Of a DNA stretch of 59,314 nucleotides, positions 3,292-7,949 are shown piece by piece (the stretch's first letter is position 1; each line of letters begins with the position of its first letter). Source of the DNA: Candidatus Bathyarchaeota archaeon (GTDB lineage Archaea > Thermoproteota > Bathyarchaeia > TCS64). A program made the translations under genes and the position numbers. The stretch is from positions 1 to 59,314 of the forward strand of contig JADHWM010000003.1 in NCBI GenBank assembly GCA_016783485.1. Direction: 5' to 3'. Below the pieces are notes generated by a model. The model saw only the letters and a list, made by a program, of their open reading frames with translations, searched no databases and was not told the DNA's origin.

Positions 3292-3825
3292 CTATGAGCT
3301 GAAGTAGCCGTCGGCGTCGGTCGTCTCCGGCGGCAGGCCCCTCTCGACCCTCATCTTGGATTCCTCGCCTGCCAGGTACTCGAACCACATCCACCAGTCG
3401 GGGTTGTCGTATCTTTTCCTCTGCTCCTCGATCACGGGCCTCCACTTGCGCCACTGCATGGATGCCCCCAATCCCTGCAGCAGGTGGTAGACGGAGTCCC
3501 GGTCGATGAGCCCCCGGTGCAGGTGGTAGCCGATCCCGTCCAGGTATGTCCACAGGCGGTAGCGTTTGGTGTAGTTGTCCCGGTTCACCGAGGAGTCGTA
3601 TTTCCTCAGGAAATCGTCGTAGTCGGTATATTCGGCCTCGAGGAGTTCGGTGTAGTCGTTGAGCCACTCCTTGGTGAGCAGGTTCTCCCTCAGCTGCATC
3701 AGCGTCTGCGTCCTCCTGGCCTTGTTCGCGTTCCGTATGGTCAAAATGTAGTATGATAATCCCGCGAGGACCCCGAAGATGGCCACAACGTCCCGGGTCA
3801 TCTGCAGTGTGACTGGATCAATCAT
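3292..3825 (-). CDS. Membrane-anchored hypothetical protein (DUF4760-like)
   Basis: N-terminal TM helix followed by a helical domain with YLDGIG..LHRGLID and WFEYL motifs. Confidence 0.65.
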   Translation of the reverse strand: MIDPVTLQMTRDVVAIFGVLAGLSYYILTIRNANKARRTQTLMQLRENLLTKEWLNDYTELLEAEYTDYDDFLRKYDSSVNRDNYTKRYRLWTYLDGIGYHLHRGLIDRDSVYHLLQGLGASMQWRKWRPVIEEQRKRYDNPDWWMWFEYLAGEESKMRVERGLPPETTDADGYFSS

Positions 3826-3907
3826 CCTAGATCGAAGATTATGAGGTTGAACTGCGGAAAAGAGTATGGGGGAAGGATGAAAGGTGAAGTGAGGGTAACA
3901 TTATGGA

Positions 3908-4525
3908 TTATAACGTCCATCCGAGTAGCTTAACCGCTTGAATTATGTCTTCCTTGATCATGCGTCTCTTACTTCGTTCAATAAAAAAGGCTGGACCCGC
4001 TTGAAGATACGAAGGAAACACACGGATCTCCCCGTAATAATACTCGTCTCCCCTGATCTTATACGTAGAACCGACTGGAATCACTCGTTCTCCCAGTCGC
4101 CGTTTAGCGATATAGTTGACCGCTTTGATGGCGAAATCACCCATGAGCATGATCACCTTGACGTTGGGGAAAAGGGCCAGTTCTCCTTCGAGGCGATGCG
4201 AGCAGTTCTTTATGGTTGCCGCTTTTACGGTGTATCCCTGTTTTCCGCATTTAATCGCTGTTGTGAAGTAGACTCCTCTCTCGACTAGGTCATTTATTGA
4301 TTCTACTTGGATTCCTGCGTCTTTGAATGCTTGGACTGTGGTTTGGCTGAAAAGGGATTCTTTTCCAGAGTAGTAATAGTCGGTGTGTTCGTGTGGGGCT
4401 GCTTCGGAGACCATGATCATCTGGATGGTTTCTGGGATTATCTCCGCTTGAGGTATGATGTACTTTGAATTGTCTACGTCTAGACATGGGAAAGTGGTGC
4501 AGCTTATGTGTTCACCCGGCTTCAT
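3908..4525 (-). CDS. Uracil-DNA glycosylase superfamily protein
   Basis: IMVSEAAP, YFTTAIKC, CSHRLEGEL, VIMLMG and VFPSY motifs match the UDG-like fold. Lower GC than the flanking genes. Confidence 0.8.
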   Translation of the reverse strand: MKPGEHISCTTFPCLDVDNSKYIIPQAEIIPETIQMIMVSEAAPHEHTDYYYSGKESLFSQTTVQAFKDAGIQVESINDLVERGVYFTTAIKCGKQGYTVKAATIKNCSHRLEGELALFPNVKVIMLMGDFAIKAVNYIAKRRLGERVIPVGSTYKIRGDEYYYGEIRVFPSYLQAGPAFFIERSKRRMIKEDIIQAVKLLGWTL

Positions 4526-4581
4526 AGAAAATCCTCAGGTACAGTTACGGTGAGGTGAGCATAAGATTGTTGGATTCAAAG

Positions 4582-4690
4582 TTTGGACCGTCAAAAACGT
4601 TATAGACGTAAAGGATCAGTTGTCACTCAAGGTTCTATTGGTTAACTGGTGGAGTCCTAGCCCCGAGGTGGGGGGCTATACAAATACCAA
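4582..4690 (+). repeat. Conserved upstream element, copy 1 (BRE/TATA plus hairpin leader)
   Basis: TTTGGACCGTCAAAAACGTTATAGAC..AAGGATCAGTTG..TCAAGGTTC..CCTAGCCCCGAGGTGGGGGGCTATACAA, homologous to the copies at 5067, 5882 and 6519. Confidence 0.9.
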
Positions 4691-4711
4691 GATAGAAAGG
4701 AGACATGAAAC

Positions 4712-5011
4712 ATGAAGGTTGTAAAATACTATGAATTTGCCGTAGAGGATCAAGATGAGATGTTTGAAAAATGGGGAAAGTATCTAGAAAAAAGTGCCAA
4801 GACGCCTGAGAAATATCCAACGTATATTTTTGGACCATCTGCGCTCGCCAAAGTTGGTGAATATATGAAAGGTATCTCGATAATGGAAGTTGACAATGAA
4901 GAGCAACTGATAAACTATTTACTCGAACTCTCACCCCCGCTCAAGGCCAAGTTTGAGCTCTTGTATGATGGCGGAAAGTACGTTCAAGCCTATATGACGA
5001 GGAAGAAATAG
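4712..5011 (+). CDS. Small hypothetical protein, DUF3303/GYD-like dimeric alpha+beta barrel
   Basis: 99 aa with an AGGAG SD upstream; beta-alpha-beta pattern KGISIMEVDNEEQL. Confidence 0.7.
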   Translation: MKVVKYYEFAVEDQDEMFEKWGKYLEKSAKTPEKYPTYIFGPSALAKVGEYMKGISIMEVDNEEQLINYLLELSPPLKAKFELLYDGGKYVQAYMTRKK

Positions 5012-5034
5012 CTTGAAGAGTCAATGGATACTAT

Positions 5035-5063
5035 CCCCATCTTTTTTCTTGAAACCCCTCAGA
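5035..5063. repeat. Conserved downstream element, copy a (truncated, left arm only)
   Basis: CCCCATCTTTTTTCTTGAAACCCCTCAGA. Confidence 0.75.
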
Positions 5064-5066
5064 ACT

Positions 5067-5173
5067 TTTAGACTATCCAAAATGTTTTAGACCTGAAGGA
5101 TCCGTTGACATTCACGGTTCTACTGGCTAACGGTTGAACCTAGCCCCGAGTTGGGGGGCTATACAAGTACCAA
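5067..5173 (+). repeat. Conserved upstream element, copy 2
   Basis: TTTAGACTATCCAAAATGTTTTAGACCTGAAGGATCCGTTG..GGTTC..GAACCTAGCCCCGAGTTGGGGGGCTATACAAGTACCAA. Confidence 0.9.
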
Positions 5174-5196
5174 AGGAGATGAGAAGTGAAACACAG

Positions 5197-5460
5197 ATGA
5201 CTATAGCACAATATTATTTCGACTGGAAGGGACCAAGAGACACAGTGAAGGAATACGGAGAGAAACTAGTAAAAGCCTGTGAGAAAACAGGAACCAAGTT
5301 CCATGGTATTTATGGACCCGGTCAGGACAAATGGAACTTTGTTGCTATGATAGAGGCAGAAGACATGCAAGAATGTATGAAGCCATTTCAAGAAGCTGGT
5401 GGTATGCCTGAAAACATGCCTCACTTCATCGTGAAGTTCTTCAATAAAGTCTACCCCTAA
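5197..5460 (+). CDS. Small hypothetical protein, GYD/DUF3303-like
   Basis: MTIAQYYFDWKGP...FHGIYGP..KWNFVAMIEAED. The ORF-track start at 5134 lies inside the repeat; ATG 5179 is an alternative start. Confidence 0.7.
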   Translation: MTIAQYYFDWKGPRDTVKEYGEKLVKACEKTGTKFHGIYGPGQDKWNFVAMIEAEDMQECMKPFQEAGGMPENMPHFIVKFFNKVYP

Positions 5461-5484
5461 ATATTCAATAACCTCCTTCCAGAA

Positions 5485-5527
5485 CCCCCCCTCTTTTTTC
5501 TTGAAACCACTCAGATGCTGATTCTAA
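5485..5527. repeat. Conserved downstream element, copy b
   Basis: CCCCCCCTCTTTTTTCTTGAAACCACTCAGATGCTGATTCTAA. Confidence 0.85.
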
Positions 5528-5600
5528 GGATGATTACGAGGAGTTCCATAGTTAGTTGTATATAATTCAATGAGGATTTCTTGAATGAGGAGGCCCATGG

Positions 5601-5837
5601 TTGTCAGTTAAAGACCGGATGGAGGACATGCTGAATGCGATCGAAGAGGCTGGCAGCGATGGTGTTGAGATGAAGGATCTGGTGAAGAATTACTATGAGA
5701 AATGGGGATTCAGGCTGTCTACCATCAAGGGTTATGTTCATGATCTCGAGGAGCTTGAGAAGGTCAGGATTGTGGGGACGAGGATCTACCATGCCAGCTT
5801 TGAACCTCCAAGGGGATTGGTTCGTTCCACCAGATAG
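5601..5837 (+). CDS. Small putative winged-helix DNA-binding protein
   Basis: 78 aa with three predicted helices then a beta hairpin (STIKGYVHDLEELEKVRIVGTRIY); GAGGAGG SD and a TATATAA box upstream. Confidence 0.6.
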   Translation: MSVKDRMEDMLNAIEEAGSDGVEMKDLVKNYYEKWGFRLSTIKGYVHDLEELEKVRIVGTRIYHASFEPPRGLVRSTR

Positions 5838-5881
5838 TAGTGGGTTTCACGACACTAACATTGTTTCACATATAATCTTGT

Positions 5882-5968
5882 TTTGACTCTCAAAAACGTT
5901 ATAGACCCGAAGGATCAGGTGAAGTTCAAGGTTCTACTATGGTAGTGGAACCTAGCTCCAATGGGGAG
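5882..5968 (+). repeat. Conserved upstream element, copy 3
   Basis: TTTGACTCTCAAAAACGTTATAGACCCGAAGGATCAGGTGAAGTTCAAGGTTCTACTATGGTAGTGGAACCTAG. Confidence 0.9.
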
Positions 5969-5973
5969 ATTAT

Positions 5974-6354
5974 TTGGTTAAAGTGAATGGAAAAAAAGTG
6001 GAGTGGGATAGAGCACCGAATTTTGTGAATGATGTTCAGAGAAAGGTGCTCTGGAAGGACGAGAAAACAGGAGCTTTGTTCGCTATCTATAGAATCCCGA
6101 AGGGTCTCGACTCTAAAGAACAGTTTCCTCATAGCCATCCCCTTGCGAATCAATTTAGGTTTAACATTTCTGGAGAAATGGAGATGCCTAATGGCACAAT
6201 AATATCATTTTCAGAAGACGATTACGGATTCAATTATTGTCCTAAAAACGAGGAACATGGCGCTGTACCAAAGGGGGTCAAAGTCCACAAGGACTGGATT
6301 TACCTCCACTACTTTGATGGACCCGATGATTGGGATGACTCTGATAGGGACTAG
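5974..6354 (+). CDS. Cupin-fold protein (ChrR-like)
   Basis: W...RKVLWKDEKTG, PHSHP, ISGEM and P..EEH cupin motifs; TTG start after GGAG. Confidence 0.7.
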   Translation: MVKVNGKKVEWDRAPNFVNDVQRKVLWKDEKTGALFAIYRIPKGLDSKEQFPHSHPLANQFRFNISGEMEMPNGTIISFSEDDYGFNYCPKNEEHGAVPKGVKVHKDWIYLHYFDGPDDWDDSDRD

Positions 6355-6406
6355 CCGGTTATTCATGAGACTTTTTCTTCATAAATCATCAATGGACTCC
6401 TGCTAG

Positions 6407-6475
6407 CCCCTAATCCTCGTTCTTTTTCTTTAAACCACTCCTATGCTGAATCTAGTGAAGAATAGATCATTGGGG
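6407..6475. repeat. Conserved downstream element, copy c (full imperfect palindrome)
   Basis: CCCCTAAT..TCTTTTTCTTTAAACCACTCCTATGCTGAATCTAGTGAAGAATAGATCATTGGGG. Confidence 0.85.
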
Positions 6476-6518
6476 ATGAATGAGGTATTATACTTACCAC
6501 AATGCTTGCATATCTCAT

Positions 6519-6591
6519 TTTGACTGTCCAAAACGTTATAGACAGGAAGGATCAGGTGAAGTTCAAGGTTCCGCTGAGATAATGGAACCTG
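6519..6591 (+). repeat. Conserved upstream element, copy 4
   Basis: TTTGACTGTCCAAAACGTTATAGACAGGAAGGATCAGGTGAAGTTCAAGGTTCCGCTGAGATAATGGAACCTG. Confidence 0.9.
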
Positions 6592-6609
6592 GATCAGAGG
6601 TTGAAGAAA

Positions 6610-6870
6610 ATGCCTGAAATGAAATATTTCATCGTATACGCAAACTGGAAACCAGAAATTCAAGGACTAGACAGCGTGAAGGAAGCCATGGAGAAATACA
6701 CGAAAGTAATCGAAGAGGCTGGATGCAAAGTGAAGCTCTGGGGTTCAGCTCTGGGTGTTCCAGAGACTGCGCTAATCGTCATAAAAGGCAGTCCTGAAAA
6801 CTACTTGAAATTACTCCCACTACAGGCACCGTATACGAACACAAGAACCCATGTAGTGCTAACGTTCTAA
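6610..6870 (+). CDS. Small hypothetical protein (GYD-like); paralog of 56167-56436
   Basis: MPEMKYFIVY...G.PE..IKGS...P..TRT pattern shared with the 56 kb ORF. Confidence 0.7.
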   Translation: MPEMKYFIVYANWKPEIQGLDSVKEAMEKYTKVIEEAGCKVKLWGSALGVPETALIVIKGSPENYLKLLPLQAPYTNTRTHVVLTF

Positions 6871-6880
6871 ACAAAAGACT

Positions 6881-6936
6881 CCCCTTTTTTATGAAATCAC
6901 TCAGATGCTGATTCTAGTGAAGAAAAGAGTATGGGG
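6881..6936. repeat. Conserved downstream element, copy d (full imperfect palindrome)
   Basis: CCCCTTTTTTATGAAATCACTCAGATGCTGATTCTAGTGAAGAAAAGAGTATGGGG. Confidence 0.85.
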
Positions 6937-6959
6937 ACAGGCATCCACCCGTGAACCCT

Positions 6960-7310
6960 CCCCAAACAACCCTAAACACCAAAACAACCCACAAAACAAA
7001 CCCTGATAGAGGGGGGGAGGGGGGGGGTCATGCATCGGAACCTGAATAATCAATCCCTAGACGAAAGGAACCTGAAACCCCTCCCGATCACCATCGAATC
7101 ATGTCAAAAGGAGCACTTATACATACCCAAAAAACGCCCCACCAGAGGAGGCTCCTCCACAAGCCACAGAGGCTCCATTCATGCAACCCAGAAGCTATCA
7201 AGAACCAAACAACAACAAAACAAACCAGAAAAAACCCCCCAAAACCAAAAATAACCCACAAAACACCCCTAACCACACCACCCACCCCAGGAAAAAAATC
7301 CACCACATAA
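6960..7310. other. Low-complexity A/C-rich tract containing a G7-A-G9 run
   Basis: Stretches such as AAACAACCCTAAACACCAAAACAACCC; G-run at 7011-7027; GGAACCTGAA at 7037 and 7067. Confidence 0.8.
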
Positions 7311-7314
7311 AAAG

Positions 7315-7389
7315 TGGGCCGGGCCGGATTCGAACCGGCGGCTTCCGCCTCGTAAAGGCGGCGTCCTAACCAGGCTGGACCACCGGCCC
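7315..7389 (-). tRNA. tRNA-Val (anticodon TAC), intronless, CCA not encoded
   Basis: Reverse complement GGGCCGGTGGTCCAGCCTGGTTAGGACGCCGCCTTTACGAGGCGGAAGCCGCCGGTTCGAATCCGGCCCGGCCCA folds as a cloverleaf with anticodon loop TTTACGA and T-loop TTCGAAT. Confidence 0.97.
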
Positions 7390-7421
7390 CCAGATACAAC
7401 ACCCGCAACCCAAATATACAA

Positions 7422-7949
7422 CTATCGAGAACCCAGCATCCCCACGATCTCCCCGTGGAGCGCCCACATACGCGCCACCGCCGGGTGGTCCTCCCCCAGC
7501 TCCTCCGCCATTCTCCCTACCGTCACACCGAACTCCACCTCCCCCGCCCCCTCAGCCAGTTTATCAGCGTAGCACACCAGCTTCTCCTCCAACGAGTCAG
7601 GCACATACACGCCCACGGGTAACCCCAGCTCCAACGCCTCATCCGCCGGGATGCCCGCCCCCACATGCCTCTCGATGATCCTTACCACGGCCAACGGGAG
7701 CCCCAGCCCCCTCGCCAACTCCCCCCCCACAGCCCCATGCCCGATGCCATGAGTGACGCTCCTACCCAGATCATGGAGCAACGCCCCCGCCTCCACCAAA
7801 GCGAGATCCACATCGAACCCCGCATCGACAAGCTCACCCCCGATCCGAGCAGCCAACCCCGCCACATTCACACAGTGACGGACAACCCCCCGACTGCACC
7901 CAGCATCCCTAAGAATCCCCAGGGCCTCACCCCGCCCCGGGAGGCTCAA
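7422..7949 (-). CDS. HD/HDIG-domain phosphohydrolase (TIGR00295-like)
   Basis: HC..V, LLHDLG, H...G, ERHVGAG and EEKLVCYADK motifs. Confidence 0.9.
   Translation of the reverse strand: MSLPGRGEALGILRDAGCSRGVVRHCVNVAGLAARIGGELVDAGFDVDLALVEAGALLHDLGRSVTHGIGHGAVGGELARGLGLPLAVVRIIERHVGAGIPADEALELGLPVGVYVPDSLEEKLVCYADKLAEGAGEVEFGVTVGRMAEELGEDHPAVARMWALHGEIVGMLGSR

Follow-up and report, generated by a model that had tools for sequence, protein, structure and literature searches.

Introduction

Small genes set between short conserved sites are known from pdif/Xer modules and from integrons. A pdif site is 28 bp long and has two 11-bp inverted arms around a 6-bp spacer. According to passages of PMC9668308, archaeal integrons use attC sites and the integrase IntI. 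PMC3001079 describes integron cassettes as mostly promoterless and read from the cassette promoter Pc. Here, we analyzed a stretch of 59,314 nucleotides (nt) from Candidatus Bathyarchaeota archaeon (assembly GCA_016783485.1, contig JADHWM010000003.1, positions 1 to 59,314), called the window below. It contains an array of four small genes, each enclosed between the same conserved 5′ and 3′ non-coding elements. Neither attC sites nor IntI were found for this array, and each unit has a promoter-like block and a T-run of its own.

The sequence-only reading of the window had taken the array for an archaeal gene-capture or shuffling system in which each cassette carries its own expression signals. 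Our analysis kept the modular units with their own signals and gave no support to the capture machinery. We favor, with a probability of about 0.6, the view that the units are self-contained transcription units of a Bathyarchaeia regulon with common expression signals, reshuffled unit by unit, most likely through ordinary recombination. The case for a dedicated capture system is not proven.

Results

Architecture of the array

The array occupies positions 4582–6938 of the window and consists of four head-to-tail units on the plus strand, each formed by a 5′ element, a small open reading frame (ORF) and a 3′ element. The host is a Bathyarchaeia metagenome-assembled genome (MAG) of 2.13 Mb in 116 contigs, 70% complete, and the window is its contig C67. 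In what follows, G000 is this MAG and G002 its congener, C-numbers are contigs and L-numbers are loci that bear elements. The 5′ element (family D1) is ~84 nt long, and its copies lie in register at 4576, 5061, 5875, and 6512, with 61–83% identity to the reference copy; nhmmer recovered the four with E values of 1e-19 to 1e-21. The family alignment and these copies in register show that the four units with conserved flanks, as first described, are real. The location in an AT-richer block beside the 3′ end of a tRNA-Val gene was also borne out: the block has 42–43% guanine plus cytosine (GC) versus 58–64% in the neighborhood, and 376 nt separate the array from the 3′ end of tRNA-Val(TAC) (7314–7389, minus strand).

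Three models were used in the searches, for the promoter (R1), the 3′ element (R2), and the leader (R3). An exact promoter pattern retrieved 76 metagenome contigs, and together with the genome loci 109 stretches were scanned. These contained 136 5′ and 137 3′ matches at E ≤ 0.01.

The promoter block

An anchored logo of the 5′ element, built from 101 unique sequences among 116 copies, revealed a conserved block of ~55 nt with sharp edges and no conservation upstream; the center of the logo is partly biased, since the metagenome copies were retrieved by a pattern from that center. The block is formed, in this order, by a 7-1-7 palindrome TTTGGACnGTCCAAA that overlaps AAAACG, by TTATAGAC, by a variable spacer of 3 nt and by AAGGATCAGnTGAnnTTCAAGGTTCTA. 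Its conservation is position-specific, with variable spacer positions between invariant ones. In unit 1 (4582–4628), a TTTGGACnGTCCAAA-like palindrome is followed by a B recognition element (BRE) and TATA box (AAAACGTTATAGAC) and by conserved positions −20 to −1. The blocks of units 2, 3, and 4 are at 5067–5113, 5881–5927, and 6518–6564, all on the plus strand.

The TATA-like box is 25–26 nt from AAGG, where the leader begins. This is the usual distance between TATA box and start in archaea, and on this basis we place the putative transcript start at AAGG, ~25 nt past the TATA box.

The structured 5′ leader

The leader starts with a 5′-terminal hairpin (HP1) whose tip ranges from 4 nt to an additional stem-loop. 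A second hairpin (HP2) has a 6-bp stem, AGCNCC/GGNGCU, and an invariant 7-nt loop, GAGGUGG. It is followed by a conserved tail, AUACAAGUACCAAG, a purine-rich ribosome site and the start codon. On the plus strand of the window, the leader of unit 1 (4629–4711) has HP1, HP2 with the GAGGUGG loop, the conserved tail, a Shine–Dalgarno (SD) sequence and the start, and R3 matches it at 4629–4695 (E 1.6e-19). That of unit 2 (5114–5196) has HP1, HP2, and the tail (R3 at 5114–5178, E 2.4e-14). The leader of unit 3 (5928–5973) has HP1 and a shortened HP2, with a fold z of −4.2, and is not matched by R3; the leader of unit 4 (6565–6609) has HP1 only. HP1 was positioned at the 5′ end in the folds of all four.

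The search with nhmmer gave 83 leader matches in the 109 loci. When 42 distinct leaders were aligned with MAFFT, 92.6% of the cells were paired, versus 42–59% for slid partners. The fourth pair of HP2 (37-50) was UA in 25 leaders, CG in 9 and GC in 1, and none of 500 shuffles reached the observed covariation score. Among 21 leaders from other genera and families, in a model-fitted alignment, 12 of the 17 pairs changed on both sides, which again 0 of 500 shuffles reached. In all 21 of these distant examples, the start codon was found 0–20 nt past the motif, on the coding strand. A cmscan of window positions 4000–7600 against Rfam 15 at E ≤ 10 gave the tRNA and two chance-level matches elsewhere, and none for the leader. 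By its covariation and its position in the 5′ untranslated region (UTR) of several different genes, the leader looks like a structured RNA of the cis-regulatory type.

The 3′ element

The 3′ element begins a median of 14 nt past the stop codon (n = 65). Its consensus, from 92 unique sequences among 101 copies, has a C-rich tract, a T-run, a strongly conserved CTTGAAACCACTCAGATGCTGATTCTA and a less conserved GTGAGGAAAAGAGTWTGGGGA, and its only symmetric feature is TCAG-N3-CTGA. The T-run can be read as a terminator. In unit 1, the element (5025–5063) is truncated and consists of the C-rich tract, the T-run and the start of the box, which abuts the next promoter. The T-run and conserved box of unit 2 are at 5478–5541, and the elements of units 3 and 4 at 6405–6477 and 6869–6938, all on the plus strand. 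At least 21 pairs of a leader followed by a 3′ box on the same strand, ~0.3–1.6 kb apart, were counted by eye.

Two candidate features were rejected. An RNA hairpin in the 3′ box (CACT/AGTG) was paired in 60–83%, and the changes in it break pairs and do not compensate. A core common to the 5′ and 3′ elements (TCAGATG…TTCTA) had a local alignment score that shuffles reached at fractions of 0.38 and 0.14.

Cargo genes of the array and of other loci

The four ORFs of the window, all on the plus strand, had been described as one cupin and three GYD/DUF3303-type proteins that do not align with each other. ORF1 (4712–5011, 99 amino acids [aa], cargo cluster 1) belongs to a DUF3303-like family; the window copy has no Pfam match at E ≤ 1, and a relative in cluster 1 matches DUF3303 with E 1.6e-8. 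ORF2 (5197–5460, 87 aa, cluster 6) belongs to a Bathyarchaeia small-protein family, and its Atlas features are nearest to Bathyarchaeota hypothetical clusters and one DUF3303 cluster, which we take as a lead only. ORF3 (5974–6354, 126 aa, cluster 4) is cupin-like, and the call is a weak one: its match to Cupin_7 (E 4e-4) is below the Pfam cut-off. The Atlas model of ORF4 (6610–6870, 86 aa, or 89 aa if a TTG at 6601 is the start; cluster 5) is nearest to GYD-domain clusters, with TM scores of 0.76–0.78, again a lead only. The assignment thus stands for ORF1 through its relative, weakly for the cupin, and as leads for ORF2 and ORF4. The mutual lack of alignment was confirmed with hhalign, which gave probabilities of 0.1–24% among the cargo families, the exception being two DUF3303 groups (93%). 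A 142-nt contig inside ORF2, from a run filed as metatranscriptomic (“probably DNA”), was not used as evidence.

The 5′ copies were filtered at E ≤ 1e-4 and for core coverage, and one duplicate locus was dropped, which left 125 copies. No complete ORF followed 24 of them, mostly at contig ends, and the remaining 101 ORFs formed 36 BLASTP clusters; some of the singleton clusters are probably spurious ORFs. A Pfam search with representatives of 20 of the 36 clusters found DUF3303, GYD, SnoaL_2, DUF4440, PNPOx, DUF1059, and ydhR, as well as 2-hydroxyacid dehydrogenase, alpha/beta hydrolase, major facilitator superfamily (MFS) and cupin-like (below cut-off) families; several had no match. The cargo is therefore not homologous, as the sequence-only reading held, and the profile search of the MAG and its relatives found the same flanks elsewhere with other cargo.

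The flanks are far better conserved than homologous cargo. Cargo paralogues in different contexts have 24–33% amino-acid identity and still keep the flanks, which argues for selection on expression signals rather than for recent mobility.

Distribution of the elements

The MAG itself has eight 5′ elements. Four are on the window contig; the two on C54 precede GYD genes, a single copy on C37 precedes the gene of a secreted protein, and another on C25 a cupin pseudogene. It also has eight 3′ elements, including one after a 519-aa secreted protein (C97) and one after an 84-aa ORF (C2).

Searches over more than 40 genomes used strict filters. R1 was present in 7 of the 79 genomes of the order, in 3 of its 15 genera, and in only one of the 32 genomes of genus g9. 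R2 was found in 27 of the 79 genomes and 9 of the 15 genera, all of them in family f1. The leader had the widest range, with matches in 36 of the 79 genomes and 11 of the 15 genera, including four of the six genomes of a second family. Beyond the order, R3 was present in 30 of the 151 genomes of the class and in one of 150 other genomes from the rest of the phylum. This lone match outside the class is at G265:C56:5607-5666 (E 6.6e-9). Copy numbers per genome are low (1–14). Distant families retain only HP2 and the tail; lineage-specific AT-rich boxes occupy the promoter position at the same distance, and the 3′ box is missing. The gene behind the leader is mostly a GYD/DUF3303-like small ORF there too.

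Viral contigs gave no match for either the 5′ or the 3′ motif. A 19-mer of the 3′ box had 14 genome-contig loci, of which nhmmer supported 12 as real and 2 as chance. Matches of 50–60 nt to the 3′ box were seen on contigs binned as Krumholzibacteriaceae, Dehalococcoidia, Patescibacteria, and Aerophobetes (L032, L034, L036, and L037); these bacterial-bin copies are likely misbinned archaeal contigs.

The literature on Bathyarchaeia promoter or terminator repeats, on DUF3303 and on the GYD domain in archaea, in a search that stopped short of supplements, gave no account of the elements. Among the matches listed for RNA motifs, riboswitches, and leaders, none was on Bathyarchaeota. On the basis of this search and of the blank result in Rfam, we consider that the leader and the element set have not been described before.

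Turnover of units between relatives

The flanks of the locus are syntenic in G000 and G002. The right side, from tRNA-Val onward, is 93% identical over 6.5 kb, and the left side continues on contig C99. In G000, units 1 and 2 are followed by a 78-aa gene, the cupin unit and the ORF4 unit. In G002, L35Ae stands before the 78-aa gene, and after it come a 102-aa unit, the ORF4 unit and an unrelated cupin encoded on the opposite strand. Homology between the two genomes is interrupted from the promoter/HP1 (window 5935) to the T-run (6420), with the cupin unit in one genome and the 102-aa unit in the other. This gap means that exactly one cargo, with its ribosome site, was exchanged or differentially lost. 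The slot after the 78-aa gene has three cargos in four lineages; the 102-aa unit also occurs on L092, and a third small ORF on L065. Unit orders vary among contigs as well. Contigs from three studies carry the same array, with no differences in long pieces, and the contigs break at the repeats.

Content and order thus vary among related genomes, as had been expected of the array. Neither an identical order in relatives, nor flanks restricted to this locus, nor uniformly homologous cargo was found.

Three other loci were seen in these genomes. A second cupin unit of G000 (C25:6614-7065, L015) has 84% coding identity, an in-frame stop and a deletion of most of the leader, and is decayed; its homology to unit 3 spans from the left edge of the promoter block to the stop codon. 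A second low-GC island of G000 (C54:43162-46751, L014) has two GYD genes with the same promoter, one of them apparently truncated (70 aa), adjoined by GNAT-like and ArsR-like genes (names given by eye). In G002, an ORF of 179 aa (L002 2380–2919, minus strand) has a C-terminal half like RNA polymerase subunit H/Rpb5 and an N-terminal extension, and adjoins an L35Ae-like gene (by eye).

Search for capture machinery

The absence of a recombinase nearby held for the whole window contig, where no tyrosine recombinase (PF00589) was found; the MAG (70% complete) has a single match, on C81. Paralogues of the C81 integrase are on C39, C110, and C68. Two integrases from these genomes were used as tblastn queries against the 109 element loci, and the only match was one query's own gene (L021). 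That locus, in G002 (C13:134045-136144, L021 4048–6144), has a 5′ element and leader before a 39-aa ORF, and then a nitroreductase-like gene in convergent orientation. It also has, toward the contig end, a 411-aa tyrosine-recombinase-like gene, 0.8 kb from the 5′ element; no other recombinase was seen close to an element.

Six inter-unit stretches, folded as single-stranded DNA, gave z scores of −0.35, 0.09, −2.31, −1.28, 0.84, and 0.13 against shuffles, and no long hairpin. Data S3 and S4 of PMC9668308 could bear on archaeal clusters of attC sites lacking integron-integrases (CALINs) in the class. For pdif, inspection by eye of the 5′ and 3′ consensus sequences revealed only palindromes of the forms 7-1-7, 4-1-4, and 4-3-4. 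The longest match of tRNA-Val elsewhere in the window was 11 nt, at chance level, so that no tRNA-derived att repeat of ≥12 nt was found there. Transfer RNA genes show no enrichment around the elements (8 of 108 loci), and the flank of tRNA-Val in other genera has no elements within 1.5 kb. In some metagenome contigs, a 3′ box and a promoter are joined within 6–18 nt of each other; these joints are indistinguishable from tandem arrays of other strains and are silent on circles. The proposal of an integron- or pdif-like capture machinery was therefore not upheld: there is no recombinase on the contig, no attC fold, no att repeat, and tRNAs accompany 8 of 108 loci.

Other features of the low-GC block

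The 78-aa gene and a CA-rich repeat add to the features previously listed for the block. The former (5601–5837, plus strand) lies between units 2 and 3 without a 5′ element and is an accessory passenger; its winged-helix likeness was judged by eye. It has no Pfam match, and 201 clusters at 74–96% identity are all annotated as hypothetical. It was found in 7 of the 79 genomes of the order and at 5 of the 109 element loci. As a candidate for the regulator of the regulon it was rejected, since its distribution follows that of none of the elements.

The CA-rich dispersed repeat, between the array and the tRNA, spans 6980–7285 (core 6980–7145; no strand assigned). At least 19 copies at E ≤ 1e-8 are present in G000, many at contig ends, with no Rfam match; they are also on C15, C19, C32, C42, C44, C55, C59, C63, C64, C7, C81, C84, C89, C90, C97, and C111. 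Five copies, all in one orientation, lie 38–113 nt past the 3′ end of a tRNA. The side far from the tRNA usually has a GC fraction of 0.40–0.49 and the tRNA side 0.58–0.62, and because of this difference the repeat may mark the borders of low-GC islands. Upstream of the array, the low-GC block encodes a DUF4760 protein and a uracil-DNA-glycosylase-superfamily protein (window 3292–4525, minus strand), both without elements.

Discussion

A proposed regulon of self-contained units

In the model that we favor, the promoter block would combine a strong core promoter with operator sites for a putative regulator. The RNA would start at AAGG and contain HP1, HP2 with its SD-like loop GAGGUGG, a single-stranded tail and the gene's own ribosome site. 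Our best guess is that the leader is a post-transcriptional control or stability element bound by a protein or the ribosome, a metabolite riboswitch being less likely. The unit would end at the C-rich tract and T-run terminator, followed by the box with TCAG-N3-CTGA, which may act on DNA as a roadblock, an insulator or a regulator site. The flanks would be alike because selection keeps them and not because they are recombination sites. Since the same blocks of 50–70 nt bracket every unit, units could be swapped as wholes, and homologous recombination or deletion between the repeats would allow them to be gained, lost, duplicated, and replaced. Such recombination would yield variable low-GC arrays like the one beside tRNA-Val.

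Several points weigh against this model. It is unusual for the unrelated genes of a regulon to have a near-identical promoter of 55 nt. Such a promoter cannot arise by point mutation gene by gene, so that there must have been some transfer of flanks or cargo. The units have ~42–48% GC in low-GC hosts and likewise in hosts of 58–62% GC, and the 5′ element is patchy (7 of 79 genomes of the order, 1 of 32 in g9), both of which fit horizontal spread. Units 3 and 4 have no full HP2. The sole DNA-binding-like gene in the array, the 78-aa gene, cannot be the general regulator because it is present in 7 of the 79 genomes. We can only guess that the 3′ box is a DNA-level site, and the box shows no support for RNA pairing. 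Transcription of the units, with its 5′ start and 3′ end, is predicted from the DNA. Many metagenome contigs are near-identical across samples, and so the copy counts are not independent events.

The variation among relatives is what a capture system would also produce. In an integron- or pdif-like system, the 3′ box and/or the promoter block would be the sites of a recombinase encoded elsewhere, and the units would be excised and inserted as cassettes. Unrelated cargo sits in identical frames (36 clusters), a single slot has three cargos in close relatives, the breakpoints being at the elements, and unit orders differ. Low-GC units in high-GC hosts, the patchy distribution, the 5′ element 0.8 kb from the 411-aa integrase of G002 and the joints of 3′ box and promoter within 6–18 nt point the same way. 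The cargo (small alpha/beta barrels, SnoaL, cupin, PNPOx, DUF1059) may also resemble the content of integron cassettes. However, the contig has no recombinase, and the integrase queries found their own gene only, at 1 of 109 loci; the inter-unit DNA folds no better than shuffles (z −2.3 to +0.8), the two consensus sequences share no significant core, and neither element occurs in viral contigs. Ordinary tandem arrays in other strains would be expected to give such joints. The conserved parts correspond exactly to a promoter, covarying RNA hairpins and a terminator, and homologous cargo in different contexts diverged anciently (24–33% identity), so that we regard such a system as unlikely. A broader version would be a new gene-shuffling platform with expression units as the mobile currency: the promoter block and post-terminator box would double as sites for an unseen recombinase or for targeted homologous exchange, and low-GC units would be traded between lineages and stacked at tRNA 3′ flanks marked by the CA-rich repeat. 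We hold this as a speculative possibility with a small chance of being right.

The units might also owe their likeness to the flanks themselves, if these were a mobile non-coding module (a mobile promoter, or an element like a miniature inverted-repeat transposable element) copied around pre-existing genes. The sharp edges of the promoter block, its presence in front of genes as different as those of MFS transporters, dehydrogenases, and membrane proteins, the 3′ box after genes without a 5′ block (C2, C97) and the different taxonomic ranges of the two elements would all fit. Inspection by eye, though, showed neither terminal inverted repeats nor target duplications, the two integrase queries that were tried revealed no transposase near the elements, copies are few (1–14 per genome), and the conservation is position-specific, as for binding sites and RNA pairs; we find this explanation improbable. 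We think just as poorly of the idea that a metabolite riboswitch is the core of the system, with the promoter and 3′ box secondary. A structured 5′ UTR motif present in several copies, class-wide and before unrelated genes, with invariant loop and tail nucleotides, does recall one, but its core is a single 6-bp hairpin with a tail, HP1 is free to vary in both length and sequence, a multi-helix junction is lacking, the loop is SD-like and the cargo suggests no common metabolite. The poorest explanation is plain tandem duplication of a gene and its flanks with later coding divergence, which the sequence-only reading had rightly found hard to reconcile with the cupin cargo. A ferredoxin-like alpha/beta fold may be common to several cargos (DUF3303, GYD, ORF4), and duplicated units exist (the cupins of C67 and C25, the two GYD genes of C54). 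Nevertheless, cupin, SnoaL, PNPOx, MFS, 2-hydroxyacid dehydrogenase, and alpha/beta hydrolase are unrelated folds by Pfam and hhalign shows no relation among the cargo families of the window, which makes duplication alone scarcely credible.

If the units form a regulon, the near-invariant promoter block and the terminator-associated box define it in a testable way, as a set of small proteins (GYD, DUF3303, SnoaL, cupin, PNPOx-like) of obscure function, headed by a class-wide covarying leader that has no Rfam family. Unit-by-unit replacement in close relatives suggests that repeated regulatory DNA can make a regulon modular, a point of interest for how transferred accessory genes come under regulation. 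We know of no genetic system for Bathyarchaeia, and a natural expression cassette could help to express genes in this lineage, which is abundant in sediments, or genes taken from it.

Comparison with known systems

The array resembles integron cassettes in that small unrelated ORFs of obscure function lie between conserved non-coding elements and vary in content, and it differs from integrons by having no IntI on the contig and no attC-type fold. As in pdif/Xer modules, genes are found between short conserved sites in different contexts, but no site with 11-6-11 inverted arms was seen by eye in either consensus. Islands that target tRNA genes share with this locus a low-GC block beside a tRNA 3′ end and a region that varies among relatives, whereas here the block has no integrase and no tRNA repeat of ≥12 nt, and tRNAs are not enriched near the elements.

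The leader is closer to the leader RNA and riboswitch regulons: it is a compensatory hairpin just upstream of start codons, on the coding strand, in several copies per genome and across a class. It differs from them in being archaeal, in having no Rfam family, and in a core of one hairpin plus tail. To our knowledge, few cis-regulatory RNA motifs are known in archaea, and we know of no leader regulon with a near-invariant promoter and a conserved post-terminator box, both of which are present here. The AAAACG and TTATAGAC motifs ~25 nt before the leader start fit an archaeal BRE/TATA core promoter, but in this case ~55 nt are conserved and the conservation runs on into the transcript. Likewise, the T-run, at a median of 14 nt past the stop codon, is like that of oligo-T intrinsic terminators, and here it is followed by a conserved box of 27–45 nt.

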